From NCBI RefSeq assembly GCF_029232205.1, contig NZ_CP107255.1:330001-362000 (forward strand): a DNA stretch of 32,000 bases, written 5' to 3'. The DNA comes from Candidatus Saccharimonadota bacterium (GTDB lineage: Archaea > Nanohalarchaeota > Nanosalinia > Nanosalinales > Nanosalinaceae). Below are positions 3,173-22,485 of the stretch, piece after piece (positions within the stretch are counted from its first letter, which is position 1; the number at the start of each line of letters is the position of its first letter). The translations under genes and the position numbers were made by a program. The notes under the pieces were generated by a model that worked only from the letters and a program-made list of their open reading frames with translations, searched no databases and was not told where the DNA came from.

Positions 3173-3895
3173 ATGGAAATCGATAACTCGGAAGAAAGAA
3201 TCAGAAACATCCATCAGGATCTCCTAGATGTGTATGGAGAACAGAACTGGCACGACAACGACGACGGCGTCAGACAGCTTCTCATAACAATACTCTCACA
3301 GAACGTAGCAGATACAAATACTGCCAGAGCAGCGGAAAATCTGTTCAACGACTTCAAAGACTACAAAGAAATCGAAGAGACCTCTATAGAAAAACTAGCA
3401 GAATCCATCAATCCAGCAGGCCTTCCAGAGACAAAAGCCAAGAGAATACAGAGAACACTGAAGGCCTTGAGGGAGCATGGAGATTCTGAGGATTACTCTG
3501 TGGACTTTCTCGGCGAGATGGAGGATTCGGATGCGCAGGCCTGGCTTGAAGAGATCAAAGGTATCGGCCCGAAGACTGCAAGCGTTTTACTGAATTTTCA
3601 CTTCGATGCGAACGTCATGCCTGTCGATACGCACGTGGAGAGGATTGCCAAAAGATTCAGGCTGATTCCATTTTCATCTTCAAATGGGAAGGCTCACGAA
3701 TTACTGAATGAGGCCGTTCCTCACGAGATCAAGAACAGCTTCCACATGCTGATGATTGAACATGGGAAGAACAACTGCACAGCCAGAAATCCTACATGCG
3801 AAAATACAAAGCTGAAAAAGTACTGCAGCTACTACGAAAAAGTTATCGAAGGCGATTTAACGCCTGAAGAGTATCCTCCGGAGGCCTGGGAATAG
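3173..3895 (+). CDS. nth: Endonuclease III-like HhH-GPD DNA glycosylase
   Basis: Motifs LLITILSQNVADTNTARAAENLF, the HhH segment IKGIGPKTASVLLNF, PVDTHVERIAKRF, and a C-terminal Cys cluster CTARNPTCENTKLKKYC. Confidence 0.8.
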   Translation: MEIDNSEERIRNIHQDLLDVYGEQNWHDNDDGVRQLLITILSQNVADTNTARAAENLFNDFKDYKEIEETSIEKLAESINPAGLPETKAKRIQRTLKALREHGDSEDYSVDFLGEMEDSDAQAWLEEIKGIGPKTASVLLNFHFDANVMPVDTHVERIAKRFRLIPFSSSNGKAHELLNEAVPHEIKNSFHMLMIEHGKNNCTARNPTCENTKLKKYCSYYEKVIEGDLTPEEYPPEAWE

Positions 3896-4501
3896 ATGGA
3901 TCTTGAAGAGGCACTGGAGAACTGGTCATCCATCAAGAAGTTCACGGATGAAGAAATAGAGGAAGGGAAACTTGAGAAAATTTTCGACTTAACCACTAAG
4001 GCTCCGACAGCTTTCAATTTACAGCCGTACAGATTTATCGTTCTGGACTCGGAAGAAGCGAAAGAAAAGGCCGTAGACTCTGCGATACCGGTCAACAGAT
4101 GGATCCAGTACGCCGACAAAATCGTGGTTCTAGTCGGAGATGAAGAAATAGATGTGAACGCCGATGAAGTCCTCAATCACAAGTTGGAGGAAGGAAAAAT
4201 CGACGAAGAGAAAGCAGAAAATCTTCGAGACATGTACGAGAGGTACAAGGCCCGTGATGAAGAATTCATGACGGGCTGGCTAACGAGAAACACGATGATT
4301 CCGGCGACGTTCTTCATGCTGGCCTGTAAAAATTATGGGGTCGGCTCATGCCCTGTCAGAGGCTTCAGCCAGCCAAAACTATCGGAAAAACTGGATCTGA
4401 AAGATTCTGAAAGGCCTATTCTGTTGATTCCTATCGGCTATCCTAATGAAGAAGATAGGAACTGGCGGAGAAAAGGAGAAGAAATTTTTGAGATTCGCTG
4501 A
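3896..4501 (+). CDS. Nitroreductase-family oxidoreductase
   Basis: The N-terminus LEEALENWSSIKKFTDEEIEEGKLEKIFDLTTKAPTAFNLQPYRFIVL is the classic nitroreductase signature. The ATG directly abuts the nth stop (TAGATG). Confidence 0.75.
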   Translation: MDLEEALENWSSIKKFTDEEIEEGKLEKIFDLTTKAPTAFNLQPYRFIVLDSEEAKEKAVDSAIPVNRWIQYADKIVVLVGDEEIDVNADEVLNHKLEEGKIDEEKAENLRDMYERYKARDEEFMTGWLTRNTMIPATFFMLACKNYGVGSCPVRGFSQPKLSEKLDLKDSERPILLIPIGYPNEEDRNWRRKGEEIFEIR

Positions 4502-5094: not shown

Positions 5095-6406
5095 ACTGGT
5101 CCAGGTTGATGCATTTGCCGTTTTCGCTGACGAAAACGTCGTCGCCTAGACTGTATCCTTCTTCTCTTGCGAGTTCTACGTAGTCGCCGAGTTTCTGGAT
5201 TGTTCCGTGTGAAGGAATGATGTTGTCTGGCTGTAGGAAGTCGATGAAGTCTCTGTGGTCTTCCTTGTGTGCGTGACCTGTTGTGTGGATTCCTGGGTAG
5301 ATTCTGACACCTTTCTCTCTCATTTTCTCTTCAAGCTCGTATCTGTTGGCTTCGTTGACTGGGCTTGGAATTACCTGTGAGGAGAAGATTACGTGGTCGC
5401 CTTCGTTGAAGTCGAATCCGTATGTTCCGGATGCGATCTTGTCAAGCTGTGCGCCTTTCTCTCCCTGGTTTCCTGTTGCAACGACAAGCCATTCGTCTCT
5501 TTCGCCGTCAACACGGCTCATCAGGTCGTCACATTCGTCGAAGTATGAAACTACTTCGATCTGGCTTGTGTCGATCAGGTCTAGTTCTTCTGCTGATTCA
5601 ACGTATTCTCTGAGTGATCTTCCGACGAACGCGATCTTTCTGCGGCCGTTGTTGGCTTCGATGATCGAGTTCAGTCTGCTGATCTGGCTTGAGAATGTTG
5701 ACATGATTACTGCGCCGCCTGCCTGATAGCAGGAGTTCAGTACGTCTCCAAGTTCGACTTCGACAGATTTCTCTGATCGGGCCCTTCCTGGCTCTGAAAC
5801 TCTTGTTGTTCCAGGGATCATGGCCTTCACTCCTTCCTCTCCAACTTCCTTCAGTCTCTCGACATCGGTAGTTTTCTCGATTACAGGGCTTCTGTCGATC
5901 TTCATGTCGTTTCCGTAGACTACGTAGCCTTCGGAAGTGTCCAGAAGACTTAGAGTTGCGTCAGGGATTGAGTGGTTCACGTGAGCAAATTCAAGAGTGA
6001 ATTCGCCTGAGATCTCCATCTCATCTCCTTTCTCAACTGTAATCAACTGGTTGTCGACATTCTTGCGATCGTCGTCAATCATTCTTTCTACGATTTTACC
6101 GGTGTAAGGAGTGCAGTAGATAGGACAGTCGTGACTGCCGGCAAGCTTTGGAATGCCTCCGACGTGGTCAAGGTGTCCGTGACCTATTACAATTCCTACA
6201 ACGTTTTTATCAAGAACTGGCTCATCCTCAGGGACTGCGCCAATGTCTAAACTCTGGTTTGTTGTCATCTCGTCAACATGGCCTTCAGCAGAGACAACGC
6301 TCTCCATATCGTAACCCATGTCGAAAATGACTACTTCTCCGTTAACTTCTACGGCCGTCATGTTCTTTCCTACTTCTTCATAACCGCCAAGTGTGTAAAC
6401 TTTCAT
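5093..6406 (-). CDS. rnj: Archaeal RNase J (metallo-beta-lactamase / beta-CASP ribonuclease)
   Basis: MKVYTLGGYEEVGKNMTAVEVNGEVVIFDMG, the HGHLDHVGG metal motif, a length of about 437 aa, and a C-terminal HTTGHA..H motif. Confidence 0.85.
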   Translation of the reverse strand: MKVYTLGGYEEVGKNMTAVEVNGEVVIFDMGYDMESVVSAEGHVDEMTTNQSLDIGAVPEDEPVLDKNVVGIVIGHGHLDHVGGIPKLAGSHDCPIYCTPYTGKIVERMIDDDRKNVDNQLITVEKGDEMEISGEFTLEFAHVNHSIPDATLSLLDTSEGYVVYGNDMKIDRSPVIEKTTDVERLKEVGEEGVKAMIPGTTRVSEPGRARSEKSVEVELGDVLNSCYQAGGAVIMSTFSSQISRLNSIIEANNGRRKIAFVGRSLREYVESAEELDLIDTSQIEVVSYFDECDDLMSRVDGERDEWLVVATGNQGEKGAQLDKIASGTYGFDFNEGDHVIFSSQVIPSPVNEANRYELEEKMREKGVRIYPGIHTTGHAHKEDHRDFIDFLQPDNIIPSHGTIQKLGDYVELAREEGYSLGDDVFVSENGKCINLDQ

Positions 6407-6450
6407 AAAGTGATTTTCACCTTTTAATAGGAAAAGATTTCAATGCAAGT

Positions 6451-6458
6451 TTTATAAA
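6451..6458. promoter_or_regulatory. Palindromic TATA-like box TTTATAAA in the divergent rnj/gatD intergenic region
   Basis: It lies 45 nt upstream of the rnj ATG (6406). An SD-like AGGTGA (complement of 6417-6422) sits 10 nt before that ATG. Confidence 0.4.
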
Positions 6459-6491
6459 ACGGAATCTGGCCTCAGACCAAGCCCATACAGA

Positions 6492-6498
6492 TTATTAA
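6492..6498 (+). promoter_or_regulatory. TATA-like TTATTAA, about 29 nt upstream of the gatD ATG (leaderless configuration)
   Basis: The spacing to ATG 6524 matches the archaeal TATA-to-TSS distance, and there is no SD between them. Confidence 0.4.
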
Positions 6499-6523
6499 GC
6501 TTTCATATTCCACCACGATTTAG

Positions 6524-7816
6524 ATGTATTCTGAACAAATCCGAGGCCGACTGGAAGAGAAAGACATTGAAATCGGAGACACAATCAAAGTAAACGACAG
6601 AGAAGGACGATTAATGCCTAAACCAGAGAGCGGAGACCCTGCAGTAGTAGTTCTCAAACTTGAATCAGGATACAACGTAGGCCTCGAACCAGAAAACATC
6701 GAACTGGTAGAAAAAAACGAAAGCTCGGAGAGAGAAAGGCCTGAAATAGAACACGACGAAGAAAAACCAGATATTCTAATTCTACACACAGGAGGAACAA
6801 TCGCCTCCAGAGTATCATACGAGGAAGGAGGGGTAAAACCGGCCTTTGAACCAGAAGACCTTCTAGAAATGTATCCAGAACTTGCTGAAGAAGTCAATAT
6901 CCACAGCAAAGTAGTTGCACAGATGTTCTCGGAGGACATGGAGCCAGGCCACTGGCAGCAAATAGCAGAAAAAATAGTTGAAGAAAAAGACGACTACGAT
7001 GGAATAATTCTGGGCCACGGAACCGATACAATGGCCTATACAGGAGCAGCACTCAGCCTCATGCTTCAGAACATCGACACAGGAGTTATGATTGTAGGTT
7101 CTCAGAGATCCTCCGATAGGCCGAGCAGCGACGCCGCAATGAACATGTACTGTGCGTCAAGATTCCTGAATGAAACAGATTTCACAGGATTCGGAATCTG
7201 CATGCATGAATCAAGCAGCGACGACTACTGCACAATTCTGCCACCGCAGAAAACAAGAAAAATGCATACTTCCCGGAGAGATGCCTTCCAGGCCGTAAAC
7301 CAGACTCATCTTGGCCGCGTAAACTACGAAACAGGAGAAGTAGAGGAAAATTTCTCTCAGAAAAACGGCGAATTCAAGAAAAATACCGAACTTAACGAAA
7401 ACGTCGGCTTTCTGAAGACAAGGCCTGGAATGGGTCCTGAAGAGATCGAATTCTTGATTGAACAGGGCTACGATGGTGTTGTCCTGGAAGGAACAGGCCT
7501 AGGCCATCTGCCAGTTAACAATCTTGAGGATGGAAAGACAGGCCATCACGAAGAAATACTTGCAAAGCTAGAGGAACTTGCTGAAGATACAATGGTTGTA
7601 ATGACTTCTCAGTGTATCTTTGGCAGGATTGACATGGATGTGTATGATACAGGCCTCAAGATACAGGATGCTGGAGTAATCTCGGCTGAGGACATGCATC
7701 CTGAACTGGCCTACGTCAAGATGATGTGGGTTCTAGCGAATTCTGAAAATCCAGAAGAAGATTTCACCAGTAATTTCGCAGGAGAAGTAACGATGCGGTC
7801 GATGTACGATGAGTGA
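6524..7816 (+). CDS. gatD: Glu-tRNA(Gln) amidotransferase subunit D
   Basis: An N-terminal AD domain followed by an asparaginase-like core: ILHTGGTIAS, ILGHGTDTMAYT, VVLEGTGLGH. Confidence 0.9.
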   Translation: MYSEQIRGRLEEKDIEIGDTIKVNDREGRLMPKPESGDPAVVVLKLESGYNVGLEPENIELVEKNESSERERPEIEHDEEKPDILILHTGGTIASRVSYEEGGVKPAFEPEDLLEMYPELAEEVNIHSKVVAQMFSEDMEPGHWQQIAEKIVEEKDDYDGIILGHGTDTMAYTGAALSLMLQNIDTGVMIVGSQRSSDRPSSDAAMNMYCASRFLNETDFTGFGICMHESSSDDYCTILPPQKTRKMHTSRRDAFQAVNQTHLGRVNYETGEVEENFSQKNGEFKKNTELNENVGFLKTRPGMGPEEIEFLIEQGYDGVVLEGTGLGHLPVNNLEDGKTGHHEEILAKLEELAEDTMVVMTSQCIFGRIDMDVYDTGLKIQDAGVISAEDMHPELAYVKMMWVLANSENPEEDFTSNFAGEVTMRSMYDE

Positions 7817-12309: not shown

Positions 12310-12924
12310 ATGTCAAAAAGAAGCGAGGTCGAACTGGGCGACGATGAGGGCTATGATGATTATGAAATGGTCCCTGTAGGCCCAATCAGAAAACTTGAGA
12401 GAAGAATTGATGAACTCCAAGAACAGAATGCACAACAGGCTGGCGGAGGTAATGACGAGCTTATCCGCGATGTTCTTGATATAATGAAGTCCAACCAGAA
12501 AATTGTCAATGATATGACAGAGTCTACACATGAGCTGAAGAACTCTGTCGAAGACCTGACGCACAAGATGGATGAGGTAGTCGACAACATGAACGCGTTC
12601 ATGGATCTACTTCACGAGGCCTCCGAAATGGACATGGAAGGAGAAATGGTTGGCGACATGGAACAGAGAATCGCAGAAGCCATTGGAACAAAAATGGATG
12701 ATGTGGCAAACAATATCCAGAGCTCCAATGAAGAAGTAATCAACCATCTACAAAACATCAATAATAATCTAAGACAGGCTGGCATGCAGGGTAGAAGAAG
12801 GCCTCAACAACAAGCACAGGATAATCCTTCTGGAGGCCAGCAACAAGGCTCAAATCAAAGTTCTGAAAGGGTTAGACAATTAAAAGAAAGATTCGGCTCA
12901 GGAAATGGCAATAACCAAGGCTAG
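12310..12924 (+). CDS. Acidic coiled-coil protein with a Gln/Gly/Asn-rich tail, hypothetical
   Basis: 204 aa with heptad-like stretches (IRKLERRIDELQEQNAQ; ELKNSVEDLTHKMDEVVDNMNAFMDLL) and no hydrophobic segment. It overlaps the first pilin gene by 20 nt. Confidence 0.6.
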   Translation: MSKRSEVELGDDEGYDDYEMVPVGPIRKLERRIDELQEQNAQQAGGGNDELIRDVLDIMKSNQKIVNDMTESTHELKNSVEDLTHKMDEVVDNMNAFMDLLHEASEMDMEGEMVGDMEQRIAEAIGTKMDDVANNIQSSNEEVINHLQNINNNLRQAGMQGRRRPQQQAQDNPSGGQQQGSNQSSERVRQLKERFGSGNGNNQG

Positions 12925-13408
12925 AACAAGAAAGGGCGTTACGCCTGTAGTAGCAACTTCTCTTCTTCTATTAATTAGCGTTGCAACTGTTTCTTCTTCT
13001 GCTATCTTTCTAAGCGGCACTATTGATGACGTGGGCGAAGGAGTCAAGGATAGACTGGGTGTTGATAGTCAAAGAGAAAATGCAGAATTGAGCATTGACT
13101 ATGGTTATAATGGTTCTGATGGCGATATTTGGCTGGATATAACCAATGATGGCAGTATTACGCTAGCTTTACAGGAAGATTCTGTTGATCTATGGAACTT
13201 CTACATAGATGGTCAAAAAGTTAATAACTGGGGTTATGCTTATGGTTTACCCTCTCAAAACGCTATTAATCCGGGAGATACCGTAACAATAGATACTAAC
13301 AGGTCTTATCCTTATTTAACCAACTCTAAGACAGTTACTTTGAGAGGCCAGTATGAGACGTCATCCTCTATAGTATGTAGCAATAGCAATGGAGAGCAAT
13401 CCTGCTAG
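12905..13408 (+). CDS. Archaeal type IV pilin-like protein (class III signal peptide)
   Basis: The N-terminus is MAITKARTRKG|VTPVVATSLLLLISVATVSSSAIFL: a basic leader, Gly, then a hydrophobic helix of the archaeal pilin-N/DUF1628 type. The protein ends ...IVCSNSNGEQSC. Confidence 0.7.
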   Translation: MAITKARTRKGVTPVVATSLLLLISVATVSSSAIFLSGTIDDVGEGVKDRLGVDSQRENAELSIDYGYNGSDGDIWLDITNDGSITLALQEDSVDLWNFYIDGQKVNNWGYAYGLPSQNAINPGDTVTIDTNRSYPYLTNSKTVTLRGQYETSSSIVCSNSNGEQSC

Positions 13409-13458
13409 GCCTAATAAACTATTTAAGTAAGGACGGGGAAACCAAAAATAGTGGTAAT

Positions 13459-13998
13459 ATGTTAACCAAGAGAAAAGGTATCACACCGGTTATTGCTATT
13501 GTGCTCCTATTGCTTATTACTGTAGGAGCTGTCGGTGTTGTATACACGCAGTTCCAGAGCCTTTTAGGTAATCCTGGTGAGCAGGTTGATCAGCAGCAGC
13601 AGGTAAGGCAGACGGAAATACGATTTGACTCCGCATACAAAGCTCAGGACGCAAGCGGCGAGTACTACGTCAATCTCACAGTCACAAATGTCGGGGCTGT
13701 CGCGTGGAATACTTCTGACTTTACCTTGTCTTATGTTCCTGAAGGTACTGGTTCCGCAGTCTCTGGACAGGCACTCCAAGCCACAAAATTCAGTTACAAT
13801 GAAACCAGTGACAACTGCTTCAGCGAGGACAACTCATCACAACTAGTAGACCCTGAAAATGGATACACCTGCAACACAGGCGTAAAATGGCCTAGCGCTA
13901 CAACAACCATAGGATTCTCAATTTCAATGAACAGCGCATCAAAAAGCTGGGGAGTATACACCTGTACACCATCAACTACCAGCTCTGTAGGCTGTTAA
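13459..13998 (+). CDS. Archaeal type IV pilin-like protein (class III signal peptide)
   Basis: MLTKRKG|ITPVIAIVLLLLITVGAVGVVY closely matches the archaeal pilin N-terminal motif. The protein ends ...YTCTPSTTSSVGC. Confidence 0.75.
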   Translation: MLTKRKGITPVIAIVLLLLITVGAVGVVYTQFQSLLGNPGEQVDQQQQVRQTEIRFDSAYKAQDASGEYYVNLTVTNVGAVAWNTSDFTLSYVPEGTGSAVSGQALQATKFSYNETSDNCFSEDNSSQLVDPENGYTCNTGVKWPSATTTIGFSISMNSASKSWGVYTCTPSTTSSVGC

Positions 13999-14021
13999 AC
14001 CGAGAAGTCAAAAGCCACTTA

Positions 14022-14030
14022 TTTTATATT
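14022..14030 (+). promoter_or_regulatory. TATA-like TTTTATATT, about 28 nt upstream of ATG 14054 (leaderless configuration)
   Basis: Position and composition fit. It would drive the tightly coupled 14054-22485 gene string. Confidence 0.45.
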
Positions 14031-14053
14031 CTACCGGAGAACTATGAATAGAT

Positions 14054-14737
14054 ATGAAAGGCCAAACCACAGCAGTCTCTGCAATTCTAGTAACTGGCCT
14101 AACAATTGGCGCAGTAGCATCAGTATATGTATGGGGCTCACCGATTCTGGAAAAAAGAGAAAGCCAGGCCCAGGTCTCAAACATTGAAGGAAACATGGTA
14201 GGCCTTTACGACGAAATAGTCAGTGTCAAGGAATCAGGAGAAGGAACTATAACTCCGTACGAACTTTCCTTATCTAGCTCAGGTTCAGAGATACAGAGCG
14301 TGACCTTAGATCCTGATAATGACTATATCAATATCTCGGTCAGCACAAACGGCGCGGCACCTTACGCAAATAGATGGAGCTTTCTGAAAGGCAATACTCT
14401 ACAAAATATTACTATAGAGCCTGGTGCCGAGACAGGGGCCTACGCAATAAAAGGAAAGGATCTCCCTGGAGTTGTAATGGTAAAATCCTTAGGCAGTTCG
14501 GCCTCACTAATCACATACCGCGTGGAATTCAGAAACATGTACGCAGAAACTCCTTCCGGACCGCAACTAGAGAAAATTGACCTGGTTGCAGCTGGAGGAA
14601 CAGAGGCAGCAGGAGATGTCACAATCAGAATAAGAAATCGCGGGGTAGAAAGAGACACTGGCGCAAATGCTGTAAAACTTCCTTCTGGACGCGAGATTGA
14701 ACGCCAGAGGAATGTCATAAGCCTGGATCTACAATGA
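14054..14737 (+). CDS. Prepilin-like protein (class III signal peptide), 227 aa
   Basis: MKGQ|TTAVSAILVTGLTIGAVASVYVW is followed by a beta-rich soluble domain. Confidence 0.65.
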   Translation: MKGQTTAVSAILVTGLTIGAVASVYVWGSPILEKRESQAQVSNIEGNMVGLYDEIVSVKESGEGTITPYELSLSSSGSEIQSVTLDPDNDYINISVSTNGAAPYANRWSFLKGNTLQNITIEPGAETGAYAIKGKDLPGVVMVKSLGSSASLITYRVEFRNMYAETPSGPQLEKIDLVAAGGTEAAGDVTIRIRNRGVERDTGANAVKLPSGREIERQRNVISLDLQ

Positions 14738-15144
14738 AAGGACAGTTTATAGCTGTTGAAGCAGTAATGTCATTAGGAATAGGCCTTATAGTTGCACTAG
14801 GAATTCTCACAGCTTTCACAGCATTTCAAGGCAGCATAATGGACGACGTAGAAAGAGCCCAGATAAACTCGGTTGAATCCGAAATAAGCGTGGCCCTGAT
14901 GCAGATAGGCTCAACAAATGTCAGCTACGGAGAAGTCTCCTTGGATCTTCCAGAGACACTGGGAGACAGAAGCTACCAGTTGAACTTCGAGAACGGATCT
15001 CTATATATTTTATCCAGCGGAGAGCAGTACAGATCCACATTCGAAAACCTGAATAACACCTACCGATTCACAGGATCGGCCTCCGGAGGAGAAGTAAGTA
15101 TTTTGAAGGAGGGAAACAATTTGATAATAAGTGATAGCGGATGA
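14734..15144 (+). CDS. Prepilin-like protein (class III signal peptide), 136 aa
   Basis: MKGQ|FIAVEAVMSLGIGLIVALGILTAF resembles the QxSxExxxL type. The start forms an ATGA overlap with the upstream gene. Confidence 0.65.
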   Translation: MKGQFIAVEAVMSLGIGLIVALGILTAFTAFQGSIMDDVERAQINSVESEISVALMQIGSTNVSYGEVSLDLPETLGDRSYQLNFENGSLYILSSGEQYRSTFENLNNTYRFTGSASGGEVSILKEGNNLIISDSG

Positions 15145-16853
15145 GTGCAAACTTCAACGGCCTGATCGGTAAGCTTCGAAAGATGAAGCACCCAGAATGG
15201 TACGAAGATGAAGAAGACGAGAGCTCAGGAAACAGTGAAGGAATAGGAGTACCAACACCTGGAGAGTTCAGGCCTGAAATGATAGATGAAGGACAGGAAG
15301 AGGCCGACCTGACAGATGTAGATGTAACTTATCCACTGGTGCCAGCAGATCCAGACGAAGGAGAAGTGGTGTACGCATGGGCCCATATCTACTGGAGTGA
15401 TGAAAAAGAAGAACTGGTTTACAAGATAGTGGAGCCAGAACTAACTCCTAATACCGAACGTCTACTCGACAAGATTCACTCTATAATGCAGAGAAGCTTT
15501 GACATAGACTTCAATAATTTGGAGACAGGAGAGGCCGACGAATATCTTGAAGAGAAGATTGATACCATCGTGGATAAGTACGATCTGAATGTAGATAATA
15601 AACAGAAAGAAGTAATTCGATACTATACTAAAAGGGACTTTGCGGGCCTCGGAAAGCTTCAGCCGCTGATGAACGATACAGAAGTAGAGGATATCTCATG
15701 CGACGGTAGAGGAATCCCGGTTTACGCTTACCACAGAAATCCAAAGTATGGTTCTGTTAAGACGGATATTGTGTGGGAGGATAAGGACGAGCTAGATGCC
15801 TTCGTTATGAAGCTGGCTCAGAGATGTGGAAGATCTATCTCTGTATCCAGTCCGCTTCTTGACGGTTCTCTCCCTGATGGATCTCGTGTCCAGGCCACAT
15901 TGGCAACGGACATTGCCCGTAAAGGATCGAACTTTACAATCAGACGTTTCACAGAGGACCCATTGACGCCTATCCACATGATGGACTACGAGACAGAGAA
16001 TGCACAGATGTACAGTTATCTTTGGACTCTCGTAGAACACGGAAAATCAATACTAATCTCAGGAACAACAGGATCCGGTAAAACATCTCAGCTAAACGCT
16101 TTATCTCTTTTCATCAGGCCTGACAAGAAAATTGTATCGATCGAGGACACGCCTGAACTCAGACTACCTCACGAACACTGGGTGCCGGAAGTAGCTCGTT
16201 CAGGATTCGGATCCTCAGCAGAGGAAGGAGGAGAAGTATCAATGGACAACCTGCTCAAGGAATCCCTCCGTCAGAGACCAGAATACATTATCGTTGGTGA
16301 GGTCCGTGGTGAAGAGGCCTATATTCTATTCCAGCAGATGGCAACAGGCCACACAGGCCTATCTACGATCCACGCCGACAGCCTTGACATGCTTATGGAT
16401 CGTCTGACCACAGAACCAATTAATCTGTCGGGAAGCCTTATTGAGACTCTTGACGTGGTAATGCTTATCTCCAGAATCAGGAGAGACGGAAGCTACATCA
16501 GAAGAATTAACGGAATCTTCGAGGTTATGGGGTACGACGACAGAACAGGGATCGATGCCAACAAAGTATTCGGCTGGGATCCACAGGAAGACGAGTACAC
16601 CATCGAAAATAACTCTCTAATTCTCAAGGATATCGCAGATCAGAGCGGAATGGACTACCAAGACCTGAAAAACGAGGTCAGAAACAGACAACACGTCCTC
16701 AACTACATGCAGGACCAGCAGATCAAACACTACAGAGATGTAGGAGACATGATCTCAAGATACTACTCCAACCCACAGAGAGTAATGGAGAAGATCGGGC
16801 AAACATTTAATGCTGAGAAGGAAGAAGTAGAAAGTAATGCTCGAGAAGTATAA
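15141..16853 (+). CDS. Type IV pilus/archaellum-type secretion ATPase (FlaI/ArlI/PilB, VirB11-like)
   Basis: Walker A is ILISGTTGSGKTSQLNAL, Walker B/Asp box is EYIIVGEVRGEEA, and the His box is ATGHTGLSTIHA. The FlaI-like N-domain carries YKIVEPELT. The N-terminus has an acidic extension. Confidence 0.9.
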   Translation: MSANFNGLIGKLRKMKHPEWYEDEEDESSGNSEGIGVPTPGEFRPEMIDEGQEEADLTDVDVTYPLVPADPDEGEVVYAWAHIYWSDEKEELVYKIVEPELTPNTERLLDKIHSIMQRSFDIDFNNLETGEADEYLEEKIDTIVDKYDLNVDNKQKEVIRYYTKRDFAGLGKLQPLMNDTEVEDISCDGRGIPVYAYHRNPKYGSVKTDIVWEDKDELDAFVMKLAQRCGRSISVSSPLLDGSLPDGSRVQATLATDIARKGSNFTIRRFTEDPLTPIHMMDYETENAQMYSYLWTLVEHGKSILISGTTGSGKTSQLNALSLFIRPDKKIVSIEDTPELRLPHEHWVPEVARSGFGSSAEEGGEVSMDNLLKESLRQRPEYIIVGEVRGEEAYILFQQMATGHTGLSTIHADSLDMLMDRLTTEPINLSGSLIETLDVVMLISRIRRDGSYIRRINGIFEVMGYDDRTGIDANKVFGWDPQEDEYTIENNSLILKDIADQSGMDYQDLKNEVRNRQHVLNYMQDQQIKHYRDVGDMISRYYSNPQRVMEKIGQTFNAEKEEVESNAREV

Positions 16854-17709
16854 AGACTTCTGTTTCAATTTCGCAGGAAAATACGCGCTAGACTCCCTCG
16901 AGTACTTCGAAGGCCTAAGACCACAACTAACAAAAGCCGGCCTCGACATATCCCTCCCGGAATACCTGAGCATGATGTACGTATCAACAGGAGCAACATT
17001 CCTGGGAATATTTCTGTTTATAGGAAGTCTAATGGCCTTAACTACAGGCATAACAGGCCTCATGATAGGCCTGATATTTGCAATACTTACATCAGTATTT
17101 ATTTTCGTTGGATTCTACCTATACCCGAAAATTTTGATCAGCAACAGATCCTCTCAGATCAGGGACACTCTTCCCTTCGCAACAATGTATCTATCAACGC
17201 TTGCAGGAACAGGATCATCTCTTCCAGAAATCTTCCAGAACCTTTCAGAAGTAGACGAATACGGAGAAGTATCAAAAGAGGCCCAGAAAATCAGCAGAGA
17301 TGTAAACAGCCTTGGAATGGATATGACAGAGGCCTTGAAAAGAGCAGCTGAGAGAACGCCGAGCGATGACTTTGAGGAACTTGTGTGGGGAATCAACCAC
17401 TCAATTACAACAGGAGGATCTCTTAGAGAGTTCCTAAGACAGAGAGCAGAAGGCCTGATGAATGATTATCAGAGAAGAGTAAGAGAATTCGCTGACTCGC
17501 TCTCTCTGCTCGTTGAAATGTACATTACGATTGTTATTGTAGGTTCAATTATTTTCACATCGATGAGCGCCGTTATGAGCTCATTCGCATCAATGTCGCC
17601 AGATCTAGTGGTTACGGTACAGGTAATATCGATATTCATAGGCCTTCCTTTAATTTCTGGCATGTTCATAATATTCGTTAGAGGAATCGCGCCAGGAGGA
17701 ATAAGGTGA
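16837..17709 (+). CDS. Pilus platform membrane protein, FlaJ/TadC-like, single T2SSF domain (first half)
   Basis: RDTLPFATMYLSTLAGTGSSLPEIFQNLSE...MTEALKRAAERTPSDDFEELVWGINHSITTGGSLREFL with flanking TM helices. Confidence 0.8.
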   Translation: MLEKYKDFCFNFAGKYALDSLEYFEGLRPQLTKAGLDISLPEYLSMMYVSTGATFLGIFLFIGSLMALTTGITGLMIGLIFAILTSVFIFVGFYLYPKILISNRSSQIRDTLPFATMYLSTLAGTGSSLPEIFQNLSEVDEYGEVSKEAQKISRDVNSLGMDMTEALKRAAERTPSDDFEELVWGINHSITTGGSLREFLRQRAEGLMNDYQRRVREFADSLSLLVEMYITIVIVGSIIFTSMSAVMSSFASMSPDLVVTVQVISIFIGLPLISGMFIIFVRGIAPGGIR

Positions 17710-17716
17710 TGCCAAG

Positions 17717-18769
17717 ATGTTAGACTTTTTCCAGGAAGAAGACTTTCAACCAGGATACTCCCTGACCAAGAAGATAATCTATGGTTCGATGGCTGTAGGA
17801 GCAGCAATAGTCATGGTAGGAGTATTTCTGTACATTCAGGGAGCTGATAGAATCGGTGGAACAGCATTCCTGCTAGGCCTGATGATAGGAGTAGTACCTT
17901 TCGGTATTCTATCCTTCCTCAGAAACAGGGCAGTAAGACAGATGGAGGACCAGTTCCCCTCATTCCTGAAGGATCTGGCAGAGTCCAAGAGAGGAGGCAT
18001 GACAATTATGAAGGCCTTCGAATCCGCAAAAGAGACGGACTACGGCCGATTGAACAGCGAAATTGAGAAAATACACTACGAGCTTACATGGGGAATTCCC
18101 TTCCCTGAAGTAATGGAAAGATTCTCAAAAAGAATGAAAGACTCCGCAGTAATCCAGGAATCCACATCTATTATTATCCAGAGCTTTGAGAGTGGAGGAG
18201 AAATCACAAAGACAATTGAGTCGGTAGGAGACGACGCAACCAAGCTTAAAGAAGTAATACAGGAGAAAGACGCCAAACTAAGACAGCAACTGGTTATCAT
18301 GTACGTCATTTACTTCCTATTCATCGGAATCACTATTGGAATCTACACAATGCTTGCACAGCTACTAGGCCTCGGCAGCCCAGATCCGGGAGCACTCTCC
18401 GGAGTAAAAGAAGTACTCAGCCAGAGTGGAAGCGGAGGAGGCGGAGGATCAGGCCCAACAAACTACTGCAGTGGCAGCATCGCCGCAGCACAACCATTCT
18501 GCTCCACCGCAAAAATCTTCGGATTCGTACCCGCAAACGTAACATCAGACCTTGCAAGCGAATACGCAAACCAGTACAGCTATGGAAGAATGGCTTATTA
18601 CAAATCACTCCTATTCACAATGCTTATGATCCAGGGAGCATGCACCGCAGCAGTAGCAGGTCAGGTATCAGAAGGAAGCCCCAGCGCAGGAGTAAAACAC
18701 GCACTAATCATGCTTCCGCTGGCATTCATCGCATTCATGGTAGCGGTTGCCTCTGCAGGTGTACCATAA
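17717..18769 (+). CDS. Pilus platform membrane protein, FlaJ/TadC-like, single T2SSF domain (second half) with a C-terminal extension
   Basis: EDQFPSFLKDLAESKRGGMTIMKAFESAKE...FPEVMERFSKRMKDSAVIQESTSIIIQSFESGGEITKTIE is followed by a Gly run, a Cys pair and more TM helices. AGGTGA at 17704-17709 lies 7 nt before the ATG. Confidence 0.8.
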   Translation: MLDFFQEEDFQPGYSLTKKIIYGSMAVGAAIVMVGVFLYIQGADRIGGTAFLLGLMIGVVPFGILSFLRNRAVRQMEDQFPSFLKDLAESKRGGMTIMKAFESAKETDYGRLNSEIEKIHYELTWGIPFPEVMERFSKRMKDSAVIQESTSIIIQSFESGGEITKTIESVGDDATKLKEVIQEKDAKLRQQLVIMYVIYFLFIGITIGIYTMLAQLLGLGSPDPGALSGVKEVLSQSGSGGGGGSGPTNYCSGSIAAAQPFCSTAKIFGFVPANVTSDLASEYANQYSYGRMAYYKSLLFTMLMIQGACTAAVAGQVSEGSPSAGVKHALIMLPLAFIAFMVAVASAGVP

Positions 18770-19632
18770 TGAAAGGCCAGTTCAGCATAGAATACTTCGG
18801 ATCAATGGTACTATTTCTCGTAGCGGTCGTAGGCCTATCAACTATCGGAGCCAACCAGGTTCCAAACTTCAGAGACGACGTCCATCAGGCCTCACTTAAT
18901 CTAGAGGCCTATACTCTATCTTCAAGACTTATGAGCCAGCCGGGATATCACAACTTCGATGATGGTGGAACGAACTGGGAGAAAAATATTTCCACTATAC
19001 GGAATACCGAGCAGGTAGGCCTTGCTAACGAGTACAGGGTACTACAGAAAAGAAAGATCGACCAGCTGACAACAGTAGCAGATGACGATCTAAACTACAG
19101 TATTTTCACTGACTCATTTAACCTGGAAAATGACTACAGGATGCGTTTTACGTGGTTCCCTGTAATAACAACCACAAAATCATTCACTAGGACACAGTCT
19201 CCACCAGAAATACAAGAGCCAGCTGACTTCAATTTCGGAAGCTACGACGACGCAGACAATACAGTACATTATAACACCTATGAGTTCATGTCTACAAAAT
19301 ACTGCTTCCTGACAGTCTCTCACAACGGCGTATACGACACAGTCTACAAAACAGAATACAACAGCTCCAGCATATACCCATGCGAATTCAATACAGACAC
19401 TGTTCGCGTGGGCGCAGGAGGCCCAATCACCTTATCAGGATACCAGTTCAGAATAGAGGAAATACAGAACAGGCCTGACCAGCAGGGATCTATGTTTATA
19501 CTGAGAAGACAGATACGTACTTTTGGCGCATCCTTTGATAGAAACGCCAGAACAATCAAACTTAACAGGTATGCGGTTTTAGATGCAAAAGGAGAAATAC
19601 AACCGCTAAGAATAGAGGTGTGGGCATGGTAA
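18769..19632 (+). CDS. Prepilin-like protein (class III signal peptide), 287 aa
   Basis: The internal Met of track ORF 18640..19632 gives MKGQ|FSIEYFGSMVLFLVAVVGLSTIG, a QxSxE motif. Its ATG overlaps the upstream stop (TAATG). The 43 codons upstream encode an Arg/Ser-rich out-of-frame overlap with the platform gene. Confidence 0.65.
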   Translation: MKGQFSIEYFGSMVLFLVAVVGLSTIGANQVPNFRDDVHQASLNLEAYTLSSRLMSQPGYHNFDDGGTNWEKNISTIRNTEQVGLANEYRVLQKRKIDQLTTVADDDLNYSIFTDSFNLENDYRMRFTWFPVITTTKSFTRTQSPPEIQEPADFNFGSYDDADNTVHYNTYEFMSTKYCFLTVSHNGVYDTVYKTEYNSSSIYPCEFNTDTVRVGAGGPITLSGYQFRIEEIQNRPDQQGSMFILRRQIRTFGASFDRNARTIKLNRYAVLDAKGEIQPLRIEVWAW

Positions 19633-22157
19633 GTAGAAAAGGAGCAGGATATGCAATTGAACTAATGGTATCAATATTTGTATTACTGGCCTTTGCAGCA
19701 GGAAGCTTCAATATTCCTGAAAATCAGGACTGGTCCAGCTATCAGGAAGAGATAGCAGCTCAGGATCTCAGCTACTCTCTGAAGAGGACAGGCCACACTA
19801 CTCATTTCCTGAAAAACAGTGAGACAGGATCTCTGAAAACTGCAATTCAAACAATCTCCGCCAGGGATATGCAGGTCTCTGGAACAGTTTCAAATCTTCC
19901 TATCCTCGAAACAGTGGTAGGATATCACACACTGCCCAAGAGAAGATATCCTAATCAGGAACTTCAGAACACGATAACCGACTGTTCGGGAGACCTGGAT
20001 GAACTGGAAAGCGAAGTCGAGTCCGGAGTTCCGATACTACAGACAGATCCTGGAAACTCGAGAGAAGGCCTTCATGACGTAACGCTGTACGTCGGGGACA
20101 CAGATCCAAAAGTATCGGGAGGATTCAACGGCAACACAGATTACGATACTGTGTGGGTTGATAACGGAACAGAATGCCAGTTCACCTCAGATCAAGGCCC
20201 ATTCTACCTTGAGGACTTCTTCCTATGGGGGAACACAACAGAAGACACGCCAGACACATACTACGATATCAAATCAATCAACTCCAATGAAATACAGCTT
20301 TACAAAGCAGATCAGCCTGTAGAAATGCAAAAAATGCTTTCCAACAGAGTTAACGGCATAAAAACACAGACATCTGTTGATACGCTAGCTTTAAACAACG
20401 CAAATCTCTCAAATTACGATATACTAGTATTCAGGGAAGAAGAATCGCTGGATGATATCCAGAACTCAAGAACAAAAATAGAAGACTTCATGAATAGAGG
20501 ATCTGTTCTACTGCTGATGAACTTGCAGGAGACAGATACCAATCACCCATTCGTAGAGGATGTAGGCCTTGAATGGACCTCCTTAAGTCAGGGAGATAAA
20601 ACCACTAGCTGCCCTCACACAGGAGATGTCGTAATCGATGGATCAAACTCGCCATGCACATTCGGGCCAGGAAAACACTTCATGAACAGCCTGGAAATAC
20701 AGGCAACAGGTCAGGTAAACATAAATAGCCAGCCAAGAGCATGTGAAAACATTTTCAGAGGAAGAGGATGCAACGAAACTGACTACGCTCAGTACTCTCC
20801 GAAACTGGTTGTGGAAGGCCCGGTAAACATAGAAGGAACCATAAACGGCGTAGGAGAAGGATTCCAGGCAGACTCTGGAGGACCTTACGGCCCAGGAGCA
20901 GGCTCAAACGGGAGCGATGCTGGTGGCGGAGCCTACGGGGGCGATGGAGGAGGCCCTGGAGGCGGCGATGAGTATGGATTGAGCTTTGGTGCTGACAGAC
21001 TTGGATCTGCAGGAGGATATGACACTGATGGGTTCTACGGTGGAGATGGCGGTGGCAGCGTCTGGATTCAGAGCGAGAGCTTCAGTCTAACCGGACAAAT
21101 TAATGTGGATGGAGAAGATGGAGCCAGCGATGCTGGTGGCGGAGCTGGTGGAAGCGTAAAAATACAATCAGATGAAGTATCCGGCACAGGAGATATCACT
21201 GCTAACGGCGGAGACTCATCTTCAAGCGGCGGTGGTGGTGCAGGAGGCCGAGTACTGGTAAAAAGTGGTTCAGGAGATAACAACTTTAATATTGAAACAG
21301 CAGGAGGCTCCGGAGTCTCTACAGCGTCAGGAGGCTCGGTTGAAAGCCCTCCAGGAATACCAGAGCTAGATAACATGATCGCAGGATTCACAACCACGGT
21401 CTCCGATGAAGCAGATTCCTACTTCAAAGGCCTGAACGGAGATCAGAGAAAGATTTCACTGGTTCCTGGAGGCTGGATAAAATCAGGCGGAGCAGAAACC
21501 GTGACCTCGGATGAAAACTTTTTGTACACAATCAACCAAAGATACAACTCCAACGACTGGAACGCTACCTCAAGAAACATGAACTATCTCTCATCAAGGC
21601 CTCCAGGAGCACCACAGGGAGACCTATACTCTGAAGACGTTCTAACATTCCCTGGCCCAGCCTGCAACGGAAACACATCCTGTGAAGTTGTAAATACCTG
21701 CCTAGGCAACTGTGGATCAGATAGAATAAGAGGCCTGAACGTGGACTTTGATGAGGACGATGACTACAGTGATCCAGGAGAAGGCCCTTTCCTCCAGAGT
21801 GAGAGAGTGGTGATCGCCAACAGAAGCTACCGTGTATCTTTCAACCATAGCTCTGCATGTAACGACGGAAGAGACTGTGCGGGATTTGTGTTTGCTGGCT
21901 CAGATGAGATAGAGCTAATTAACCATAGAACTGATTTCGAAGGATTTCAGGGCCAGAGACTTGCTAGAGCAGCTTATGAGCAAGAATTTGAAACAGATGA
22001 TCTTAAGACATTGGCCTCGACTATTTACTGGTTGAGAGGAGATCAGCTAACATTTTCGCAGGAAGATCAACCTGAATACTCCACAGGAGTGGTAGGAAGC
22101 GTCAAGGAAGAGGTATTTATGCCCTACAAACTGAATCTAAGGTGGTCTAATGAGTAA
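19626..22157 (+). CDS. Large secreted prepilin-like protein with Cys-rich and glycine-run repeat domains (candidate adhesin)
   Basis: MVSRKG|AGYAIELMVSIFVLLAFAAGSF at the N-terminus; the ATG forms an ATGGTAA overlap with the upstream stop. A central Gly-rich repeat region spans about 20850-21350, and Cys clusters lie on both sides of it. Confidence 0.7.
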   Translation: MVSRKGAGYAIELMVSIFVLLAFAAGSFNIPENQDWSSYQEEIAAQDLSYSLKRTGHTTHFLKNSETGSLKTAIQTISARDMQVSGTVSNLPILETVVGYHTLPKRRYPNQELQNTITDCSGDLDELESEVESGVPILQTDPGNSREGLHDVTLYVGDTDPKVSGGFNGNTDYDTVWVDNGTECQFTSDQGPFYLEDFFLWGNTTEDTPDTYYDIKSINSNEIQLYKADQPVEMQKMLSNRVNGIKTQTSVDTLALNNANLSNYDILVFREEESLDDIQNSRTKIEDFMNRGSVLLLMNLQETDTNHPFVEDVGLEWTSLSQGDKTTSCPHTGDVVIDGSNSPCTFGPGKHFMNSLEIQATGQVNINSQPRACENIFRGRGCNETDYAQYSPKLVVEGPVNIEGTINGVGEGFQADSGGPYGPGAGSNGSDAGGGAYGGDGGGPGGGDEYGLSFGADRLGSAGGYDTDGFYGGDGGGSVWIQSESFSLTGQINVDGEDGASDAGGGAGGSVKIQSDEVSGTGDITANGGDSSSSGGGGAGGRVLVKSGSGDNNFNIETAGGSGVSTASGGSVESPPGIPELDNMIAGFTTTVSDEADSYFKGLNGDQRKISLVPGGWIKSGGAETVTSDENFLYTINQRYNSNDWNATSRNMNYLSSRPPGAPQGDLYSEDVLTFPGPACNGNTSCEVVNTCLGNCGSDRIRGLNVDFDEDDDYSDPGEGPFLQSERVVIANRSYRVSFNHSSACNDGRDCAGFVFAGSDEIELINHRTDFEGFQGQRLARAAYEQEFETDDLKTLASTIYWLRGDQLTFSQEDQPEYSTGVVGSVKEEVFMPYKLNLRWSNE
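20850..21350 (+). repeat. Glycine-run coding repeats inside the 845-aa gene, including an exact 20-nt direct repeat
   Basis: There are about three units of about 30 aa: GGDGGGSVWIQSESFSLTGQINVDGEDGAS / DAGGGAGGSVKIQSDEVSGTGDITANGGDSSS / GGGGAGGRVLVKSGSGDNNFNIETAGGSG. The 20-mer agcgatgctggtggcggagc occurs at 20913-20932 and again at 21126-21145. Confidence 0.75.
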
Positions 22158-22485
22158 AAGAAGTAAAGGCCAGTTCATGGTTATCTCGTCTATAATAATC
22201 AGCCTTATTCTAATGGCGACATCTGCTGCAATCACGGATGTTCAAAAGGAGAAGCATACTCCAACGGATAGAGGGCAGTATGTTCAGATGATTAAGAATG
22301 AAGCTAAGGAGGTGGATGCAGGCAATCCTAAAGATATCAGAAACTTCAATAAAATGGTGAACTCCATCGATAAGTATACAGTTAATTCTCAGTACTGGAA
22401 CAGGGATTCGGCAACAGACTGCTTTAATGTAACAATGAGAAGCTCGGATACCGATTTCGATCTAGGTTGCGTGCCTATTGATTGA
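22150..22485 (+). CDS. Prepilin-like protein (class III signal peptide), 111 aa
   Basis: MSKRSKGQ|FMVISSIIISLILMATSAAI. The start forms an ATGAGTAA overlap with the upstream gene. The 3' end overlaps the convergent rfcL by 11 nt. Confidence 0.6.
   Translation: MSKRSKGQFMVISSIIISLILMATSAAITDVQKEKHTPTDRGQYVQMIKNEAKEVDAGNPKDIRNFNKMVNSIDKYTVNSQYWNRDSATDCFNVTMRSSDTDFDLGCVPID

Follow-up and report, generated by a model that had tools for sequence, protein, structure and literature searches.

A prepilin-like gene within a conserved pilus-like operon

The window, i.e., the whole 32,000-nucleotide stretch of DNA that was analysed, contains on its forward strand an open reading frame at 19626–22157 (stop codon included) that encodes 843 amino acids from the ATG at 19626. 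Its product is 100% identical to a deposited protein of the same length (P0001), annotated as a hypothetical protein of Ca. Nanohalovita haloferacivicina (Nanohaloarchaeota). An earlier, sequence-only reading had found the correct frame but arrived at 845 aa because its count began at a GTG at 19620, a start that homologues do not use. The protein is acidic, has nine N-x-S/T sequons and carries 12 cysteines (residues 120, 184, 329, 344, 373, 382, 680, 686, 692, 696, 745, and 751), and its sole hydrophobic segment covers residues about 7–28.

The class III-type start MVSRKG|AGYAIELMVSIFVLLAFAAGSF, as proposed from the sequence alone, was confirmed, with K5, G6, G8, Y9, and E12 invariant or almost so in an alignment of 21 homologues. 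A predicted leader peptide, MVSRKG (19626–19643), with a putative cut after the family-conserved K5 and G6, is followed by a hydrophobic N-terminal helix (residues 7–28; 19644–19709) that holds the conserved G8, Y9, and E12. After the predicted cut, Gly stands at +2 and the conserved Glu at +6, not +5, both of which are atypical for prepilin motifs. The AF2 model of the protein has a helix at residues 8–25, further helices, and strands at 83–114, with pLDDT below 50 for residues 1–80 and, by approximate bounds, about 1–90. No match to Pilin_N (PF07790), TIGR02537, or Arch_flagellin was found for the protein at E≤1, while its 179-aa neighbour does match. When a prepilin rule (a leader no longer than 13 aa that ends in [KR][GA], then 22 hydrophobic residues without K, R, or D) was applied to the 214 candidate ORFs on both strands of the window, it selected six, all of them in the same operon and the 843-aa protein among them. 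No prepilin peptidase gene was identified within the 32-kb window.

The operon consists of seven prepilin-like genes (the 843-aa protein included), a FlaI/PilB3-type ATPase, and a split TadC, all on the forward strand and linked via overlapping start and stop codons. It opens with a 167-aa prepilin-like gene (12905–13408; RKG|VTPVVATSLLLL) with weak Arch_flagellin and ArlF/ArlG-like matches, followed by a probable major pilin of 179 aa (13459–13998; RKG|ITPVIAIVLLLLITVGAV) that matches TIGR02537 at 22 bits against a cutoff of 20 and, weakly, Pilin_N and UpsA. Prepilin-like genes of 227 aa (14054–14737; MKG|QTTAV; DUF7289, E = 8e-6) and 136 aa (14734–15144; MKG|QFIAVE; DUF7266, E = 9e-5) precede a 570-aa type IV filament assembly ATPase (15141–16853; T2SSE, E = 2e-33; PilB3_C). 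The TadC/FlaJ-like platform protein is encoded in two halves, an N-terminal one of 290 aa (16837–17709; T2SSF, E = 6e-19; ArlJ positions 6–234) and a C-terminal one of 350 aa (17717–18769; T2SSF, E = 1.7e-14; C-terminal part of ArlJ models). A 287-aa prepilin-like gene (18769–19632; MKG|QFSIEY, Glu at +5) then overlaps the start of the 843-aa protein by 7 nt, and a 111-aa prepilin-like gene (22150–22485; SKG|QFMVISS) overlaps its stop by 8 nt and is the operon's last gene. A [KR]G leader also occurs in six of these neighbouring genes. Translation of the 843-aa protein is coupled to that of the other six prepilin-like genes as well as the ATPase and the split TadC platform, and its gene is penultimate in the operon rather than at its distal end, where it had been placed initially.

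Gene order was identical in all four of the other nanohaloarchaeal loci inspected (L001, L003, L004, and L005): thermosome, pilins, ATPase, two TadC genes, a gene of ∼290 aa, the counterpart of the 843-aa protein, a gene of ∼107 aa, and RFC. The N-termini of the seven pilin-like genes are conserved between these loci. Because linkage to the pilus genes is kept in these four other loci, the objection that the gene might prove unlinked to pili in related genomes, raised by the sequence-only reading against itself, fails. A rival reading, in which the protein would be a common S-layer protein or surface glycoprotein that lies beside pilus genes by accident, draws on its large size, acidity, cysteines, and sequons. 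It is already disfavoured, however, and we find it very improbable, as the linkage with overlapping frames recurs in 5 of 5 loci, the N-terminus is prepilin-like and not Sec-type, the only hydrophobic segment is N-terminal with no C-terminal anchor in the protein, and no S-layer family or PGF-CTERM match was obtained.

An archaellum operon was considered and rejected: with 407 bits the ATPase falls short of the FlaI cutoff (550), none of the operon's genes matches an ArlH (KaiC-like), ArlC/D/E, or ArlX family, and the major subunit is PilA-like. The BasE and BasF models also pick up the ATPase and the platform protein, with scores under the cutoff. In the Sulfolobus bindosome, sugar-binding proteins carry class III signals, and the 843-aa protein might likewise be a surface-displayed or secreted binding protein or enzyme, exported by type IV machinery and working outside any pilus. 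Its class III-like signal and operon context fit such a role equally well, and the BasE and BasF matches also speak for it; however, the operon has typical PilA-like major pilin genes, and family-model and PDB searches detected no substrate-binding or catalytic family in the protein. We therefore regard a bindosome-like role as unlikely.

An orphan core interrupted by a glycine-rich module

Behind the N-terminus, as judged by sequence comparison, is a ∼570-aa acidic, Cys-containing body without known relatives. Pfam and PDB searches gave none for the core, and no ligand-binding domain was recognised in the protein. The family to which it belongs has a core of ∼600 aa and a typical member length of 570–610 aa; its named members are all Nanohaloarchaea. 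Family alignments delimit an N-terminal part of the core at residues 31–321 (19716–20588), with invariant C120 and C184 and a pLDDT mostly of 73–93, with short dips, for residues about 100–320, and a C-terminal part at residues 593–843 (21402–22154), with Cys 680, 686, 692, 696, 745, and 751.

Between these two halves lies a Cys-capped, Gly-rich, solenoid-like module of ∼270 aa (residues 322–592; 20589–21401). Within the family this repeat-bearing part is optional: of the 68 members found, 9 carry the module and 58, the majority, lack it. It is always inserted at the same site, and its carriers are scattered over the core tree; one member, P0034, bears a different insertion. The four Cys segments reported from the sequence alone are all present. 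The first two lie in a cap at the N-terminal end of the module (20610–20771), whose cysteines C329, C344, C373, and C382 are invariant in the seven module-bearing homologues, and the last two belong to the C-terminal core of the family.

Downstream of the cap, residues 411–575 are 33% Gly and 64% Gly, Ser, Asp, and Ala. A Gly-rich segment (residues 411–471; 20856–21038) with conserved GPGAG, GGGxYGG, YG, and GSAGG motifs is modelled with high pLDDT and no regular DSSP elements. It is followed by three rungs of 32 residues (472–503, 504–535, and 536–567; 21039–21326), in each of which a Gly run leads into a long strand and, past a turn, a short one. The Gly runs begin at residues 472, 504, and 536, and the periodicity of about 30 residues noticed earlier thus holds, with an exact value of 32; rungs one and two are identical at 16 of 32 residues by hand count. 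Rather than the disorder that would have told against the earlier reading, the AF2 model of the module (pLDDT 94.4, pTM 0.92) shows ordered, periodic β-strand pairs. These lie at module residues 71–86, 157–172, 189–204, and 221–236 and, as read from the secondary-structure output, recur every 32, 32, and 29 residues, a regularity consistent with a β-solenoid. Foldseek returned no significant match in the PDB, all β-helix matches to the module model being non-significant (best E = 0.38, TM≤0.24), and PDB sequence searches gave no match, whether started with the protein itself or with the profiles of the family and the module. The module is not an RTX calcium-binding β-roll, which is defined by tandem GGxGxDxUx nonapeptides with a period of 9; its period is 32, its rung motif is GGGxGGS-V-x-I, and it has no RTX family match.

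The exact 20-nt direct repeat within this region (20913–20932, encoding SDAGGGA, and 21126–21145, both on the forward strand) was confirmed, with an in-frame spacing of 213 nt and no tandem DNA array. Shuffling synonymous codons while leaving the protein unchanged produced a repeat of at least 20 nt in 9 of 500 trials, so that the observed one is just mildly above chance. The length variation by slippage or recombination that the repeat had seemed to permit is unsupported: the repeat is not conserved in the orthologues of L004 and L005, and the module is full-length in 7 of 7 aligned module-bearing homologues, with no length variants among them.

The sequence-only reading had not recognised the repeat family, and the module proved to have thousands of relatives, mostly in giant surface proteins. 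With a full-length profile and a threshold of E≤0.001, 7461 matches came up in a set of 50%-identity representatives; the top matches listed from outside the family align to the module positions, often 4–12 times, in proteins of 1000–7000 aa. Named relatives are nearly all bacterial, and the module co-occurs with Ig, dockerin, G8, DUF2341, and Por_Secre_tail domains, i.e., in extracellular contexts. A minority of bacterial relatives reach into the region of the cap, and the cap cysteines are missing from them in the 35-sequence alignment. Giant-virus proteins have predicted folds similar to the module. There is no Pfam model for the module, and the sole curated model to overlap it, in part, is that of the AgmC N-terminal domain (NF047640), positions ∼235–409 of which were matched by 12 of 35 module sequences (best E = 1.2e-13). 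The module studied here scored 13.7 bits (E = 0.023, positions 235–409 only) against a cutoff of 275 over the 412-position model and is therefore not an AgmC equivalog.

A candidate for host contact

Taken together, these observations may well point to a modular minor pilin of a conserved nanohaloarchaeal type IV pilus-like filament, located at the tip and in contact with the host, and we hold this reading with moderate confidence. Prepilin peptidase would cleave the protein after Gly6, and its N-terminal helix would dock into the filament. The bulk of its body would keep it out of the shaft, so that it would probably sit at the tip, along with other minor pilins, and structural papers have drawn the same conclusion for bacterial GspK, ComZ, and PilB (PMC6561018, PMC8179133). 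The source organism, a tiny halophilic archaeon, lives as an ectosymbiont in tight attachment to Haloferax, also an archaeon, and the microscopy paper that describes it makes no mention of pili (PMC10443357). This silence counts against the minor-pilin reading, as do the missing match to a pilin family model, the atypical +2 and +6 residues, the low pLDDT of the N-terminal region, and the failure to identify a peptidase gene in the window or a ligand-binding domain in the protein. The exposed body, lengthened by the solenoid module, would touch the envelope of the Haloferax host, and the optional module may tune this contact. By analogy we infer both the tip location and adhesion; with a conserved pilus operon and an optional Gly-rich module, the protein is a reasonable candidate for host attachment.

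The gene is single-copy in each genome and keeps its place within the operon in all loci examined, which would also fit a structural role in the machinery rather than host recognition. The protein could then be a membrane-anchored part of the pilus machinery, held at the filament base by its N-terminal helix irrespective of cleavage, its body bridging to the envelope or forming a collar like ArlF/ArlG and its module acting as a spacer. ArlF and ArlG have similar pilin-like N-terminal helices, the 167-aa neighbour weakly matches their models, and the core has no recognisable binding domain. However, the invariant Lys-Gly leader and helix Glu typify processed, polymerising subunits, and neither the gain and loss of a 270-aa module nor the different insertion of P0034 would be expected of such a part, so that we think a basal role rather doubtful.

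Returning to the minor pilin, the module also occurs independently in non-pilin proteins, as is expected of a modular pilin, and a bacterial prepilin (N_methyl plus fn3), independent of the nanohaloarchaeal family, carries one or two copies of it. CPR-like bacteria appear to have built this prepilin-plus-module design independently. We tentatively suggest, as a possibility, that the module is an uncatalogued fold family, widespread in giant surface proteins, which serves as a gain-and-loss cassette on the nanohaloarchaeal tip pilin and determines the choice of haloarchaeal host envelope.

To our knowledge, how DPANN such as Nanohaloarchaeota recognise and hold their hosts is largely unexplained. 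Work on DPANN attachment has centred on giant SPEARE-type proteins, and pilus genes are usually labelled “archaella-like.” The locus described here offers a concrete candidate for host attachment: the protein is conserved, bulky, and pilin-like, and lineages differ by whole modules in its putatively exposed part. The analysis also defines a Gly-rich, solenoid-like module of ∼190–270 aa with a very confident model, thousands of homologues, and no domain-database entry, a description of which would help annotate many of the giant surface proteins found in bacteria, as well as AgmC, the gliding protein of Myxococcus.

Comparison with known systems

An adhesin or minor-pilin role has been predicted for large class III signal proteins of archaeal type IV pilus loci (Makarova et al. 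2016, PMC4858521), and the 843-aa protein resembles them in being a big protein with a prepilin-like signal beside an ATPase, TadC, and small pilins. Those proteins contain DUF2341 or fall into other arCOGs, whereas the core family described here matches no model, although some bacterial proteins combine DUF2341 with the Gly-rich module. Nanohaloarchaeota and DPANN have no occurrences in that paper (PMC4858521). As for AgmC, the adventurous gliding motility protein of Myxococcus, just part of its NF047640 model corresponds to the module, and our literature search did not find an open paper on it.

PilB and PilC of Streptococcus sanguinis, CofB, and GspK are modular type IV pilins, likely exposed at the tip, where they are proposed to add functions to the filament (PMC8179133). 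The 843-aa protein would share their design of a class III signal and pilin N-terminus with a bulky module found beyond pilus biology. The survey that described them covered bacterial proteins with the IPR012902 N-terminal domain (PMC8179133); the protein studied here has no N_methyl (PF07963/IPR012902) match, and a survey built on that domain would therefore miss it. The vWA module of PilB is a demonstrated adhesin (PMC8179133), whereas the role proposed here is that of a candidate. PDB sequence searches and Foldseek gave no homology to the PilB vWA domain, the ComZ solenoid, the GspK α-domain, or CofB.

ComZ, a minor pilin of the Thermus thermophilus competence pilus, has a β-solenoid inserted in the pilin, a DNA-binding triangular helix of ∼380 residues that resembles ice-binding proteins; its gene adjoins other minor-pilin genes, and its authors argued for a tip position on steric grounds (PMC6561018). 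The two proteins are alike in their solenoid-type insertion (predicted in the nanohaloarchaeal protein) and in being encoded among minor pilins. They differ in that ComZ is bacterial and has no sequence or significant structural similarity to the archaeal protein in PDB searches, in that the archaeal module is rich in Gly and repeats every 32 residues, and in that the ComZ solenoid sits in the pilin itself, whereas the archaeal module sits inside an orphan ∼570-aa body with a putative pilin β-sheet. By this analogy, the protein would best be read as the archaeal equivalent of the bacterial proteins ComZ, PilB, and GspK.

A prepilin-like gene in a conserved pilus operon

The window is archaeal, encoding GatD/GatE, a thermosome, the small and large RFC subunits and an Lhr-type helicase, and the protein under study has an exact counterpart (100% identity across 843 aa) in a hypothetical protein from Candidatus Nanohalovita haloferacivicina, a nanohaloarchaeon that lives tightly attached to Haloferax (PMC10443357). 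The literature on this organism, which names "archaella and filament" genes, makes no mention of the protein. Its ORF (19626-22157, + strand) is real and begins at ATG 19626, where the homologues start; the upstream GTG 19620 is thereby ruled out, and the length of 845 aa proposed in the sequence-only reading becomes 843 aa. The class III-type signal proposed in the same reading is present (MVSRKG/AGYAIELMVSIFVLLAFAAGSF), with K5, G6, G8, Y9 and E12 fully or almost fully conserved across 21 homologues, and this N-terminal segment is the only hydrophobic one, the rest of the protein being acidic (pI 4.2). The two strands of the window together contain 214 Met-initiated ORFs of 90 aa or more, of which a simple prepilin rule picked six, all of them within the pilus operon and this gene among them; a seventh operon gene, at 14054 (MKG/QTTAV), has the same type of leader.

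The operon occupies 12905-22485 of the + strand, with overlaps of 1-20 nt between most adjacent genes. Two PilA-like pilin genes (one at the TIGR02537 cutoff) stand at its start and are followed by DUF7289-like and DUF7266-like prepilin genes, a T2SSE/PilB3_C ATPase gene whose score falls short of the FlaI cutoff, and two genes (16837-17709 and 17717-18769) that together encode a TadC/FlaJ platform, the first matching the N-terminal and the second the C-terminal half of the ArlJ models. At its end lie a 287-aa prepilin-like gene, the 843-aa gene and a 111-aa prepilin-like gene, so the large protein is not encoded at the distal end, as had been supposed. Its linkage to pilus genes held: the gene order is identical in all four other nanohaloarchaeal loci inspected (L001, L003, L004 and L005), always flanked by thermosome and RFC genes, and the prepilin-like N-termini are kept across them. 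No operon gene matched the ArlH, ArlC/D/E or ArlX families. We therefore consider this a pilus-type system and rule out an archaellum, for which the accessory genes were not found in the operon and the ATPase was under cutoff.

The split of the platform gene is kept in all four related loci, and the C-terminal part of the second half (17717-18769) contains a Gly run together with a Cys-bearing stretch (GSGGGGGSGPTNYCSG...FCST). At the head of the cluster lies a gene (12310-12924) for a 204-aa acidic protein with a Q/N/G-rich tail and without a hydrophobic segment; its positional counterpart in every related locus, ahead of the pilin genes, is a gene of 204-252 aa without Pfam hits. Homologue N-termini place the start of the prepilin-like gene after the platform genes at ATG 18769 (MKGQFSIEY), with a 1-nt overlap with the preceding stop codon, and rule out the longer ATG start at 18640 (mechanical ORF 18640-19632). 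In its product, positions +1, +3 and +5 are Gln, Ser and Glu, a pattern that resembles the QxSxE motif of EppA type in methanococcal pilins. A tandem pair of ~178-aa major-pilin-like genes is found in L005, a close relative (3245-3781 and 3831-4367), and a single such gene in the window (13459-13998).

A protein family with an optional module

All homologues with a source name are from Nanohaloarchaea, and most family members are 570-610 aa long. Query residues ~322-592, containing the first two Cys segments and every Gly run of the protein, are absent from the short forms at one constant site. This Gly-rich, Cys-capped module is present in 9 of the 68 family members that have both halves of the remaining core. 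One of the 68, P0034 (740 aa), is without it and has a different insertion elsewhere (~150 aa, Cys/Trp-rich, at residues ~205-350 of the N-terminal core, without a Pfam match); set beside the module, this insertion makes the core seem tolerant of different grafted domains. On a neighbour-joining tree of the core columns, built without bootstrap, module-bearing members are scattered, with the short P0007 inside the query's clade and the short P0010 sister to the long P0006. The Cys cap is specific to, and common among, nanohaloarchaeal modules, whose identity (44-57%, versus 45-65% for the whole protein) indicates similar divergence. Because the module is patchy on the tree, the cap is shared and the module diverges about as the core does, we infer that the module was probably acquired once and then repeatedly lost.

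Searches of the whole protein against Pfam and NCBIfam gave nothing above noise (Phage_connector, E = 0.23; AgmC_N, E = 0.56), the family profile had no match in Pfam, and no PDB sequence was a meaningful match, the best being a herpesvirus capsid protein for the query (E = 3.2) and a membrane-fusion protein for the family profile (E = 0.056). In the whole-chain AlphaFold2 model (pLDDT 71.7), residues ~100-320 and ~590-800 are mostly confident and residues 1-90 poor; its best Foldseek E against the PDB was no lower than 0.35, a failure for which orphan folds and the mediocre quality of the model are the probable reasons. In the N-terminal core, the segment YDILVFRE...helix...GSVLLLMN (20415-20525, residues ~264-300) presumably resembles a beta-alpha-beta unit of GATase1-like or GldG/DUF4350-type domains, a likeness supported by no database hit.

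The exact 20-nt direct repeat noted earlier exists, its copies lying 213 nt apart and each encoding SDAGGGA. The accompanying suggestion of slippage and length variation was set aside as unsupported: exact repeats of 13 nt or longer are missing from the orthologous genes of L004 and L005, the 71-residue deletion expected from recombination between the copies was seen in no homologue, and the module is full-length in all seven aligned homologues that bear it. Tandem Repeats Finder detected no tandem DNA array, and 1.8% of synonymous shuffles with the protein held fixed yield a repeat of equal or greater length. In our view the DNA repeat follows from the repetition in the peptide and is not a device for variation.

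Predicted fold and relatives of the module

An AlphaFold2 model of the module, run with a 35-sequence alignment, was highly confident (pLDDT 94.4, pTM 0.92). The strand-rich Cys cap comes first; long and short strand pairs lie at module residues 71-86, 157-172, 189-204 and 221-236, and the Gly-rich residues 87-156 are confident without regular secondary structure. Gly-run rungs begin at residues 472, 504 and 536 of the protein, confirming the repeats with a period of exactly 32 instead of the ~30 claimed. By this model and these rungs, disorder is refuted and a beta-solenoid would fit. Foldseek with the module model found nothing significant in the PDB (best E = 0.38), which places the module outside the solved beta-helix families; among the weak hits, beta-helix adhesins, pectate lyases and phage gp38 are over-represented. 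An RTX-like calcium beta-roll was ruled out by period and motif. Significant matches to the model (E = 1.7e-8 to 6.5e-4) came from predicted giant-virus and prasinovirus proteins in BFVD, which suggests that the predicted fold may occur also in giant-virus surface proteins. The matches at E = 1.7e-8 to 3e-5 are to predicted structures of prasinovirus (PA14 domain-containing), pandoravirus and orpheovirus "collagen-like" proteins.

A profile built from seven full-length proteins matched 7461 representatives at E <= 0.001. The top matches listed outside the family are proteins of 1000-7000 aa that align to module positions ~325/390-590, usually 4-12 times each. Named carriers include cyanobacteria, Bdellovibrio, Planctomycetes, Verrucomicrobia, Myxococcota and Patescibacteria, among others, and the partner domains are extracellular (Ig, dockerin, G8, DUF2341, Por_Secre_tail and Golvesin_C). 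No Pfam family covers the module (0 of 35 aligned module sequences), and its profile had zero matches among PDB sequences. Among curated models, only the NCBIfam AgmC N-terminal domain overlaps the module, through its C-terminal part (matched by 12 of 35 module sequences); the query module scores far under that model's cutoff, and we found no open paper on AgmC.

A proposed modular minor pilin and its parallels

The best-supported reading of the 843-aa protein is a modular minor pilin. Its prepilin-like N-terminus, once processed, would dock it into the filament, followed by an orphan acidic body into which, in this lineage, the Gly-rich solenoid-like module is inserted; the protein may sit at the tip and bind the host. 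Two other readings are live, that it is a structural part at the filament base or that it belongs to a bindosome-like surface display. The bulk of the protein points to the tip, as do the precedents of ComZ, which has an inserted beta-solenoid (PMC6561018), and of PilB, GspK and CofB (PMC8179133).

The proposed design also has an independent bacterial parallel. P0284 (495 aa), encoded at 6001-7488 of the metagenomic contig L006, is a bacterial prepilin (KGFTLLE, Pfam N_methyl) with fn3 and one copy of the module, and P0293 (815 aa), a member of the same cluster, has two. The P0284 gene stands alone amid housekeeping genes on a compact contig of 140 kb, which looks to us to be of CPR/Patescibacteria type.

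For archaeal pilus loci, an earlier prediction was that large proteins with class III signals act as adhesins or minor pilins (PMC4858521). Large or modular pilin-like proteins in type IV pilus loci are already known as a kind; new here are the archaeal family, the behaviour of its insert as an optional cassette, and the uncatalogued module itself.
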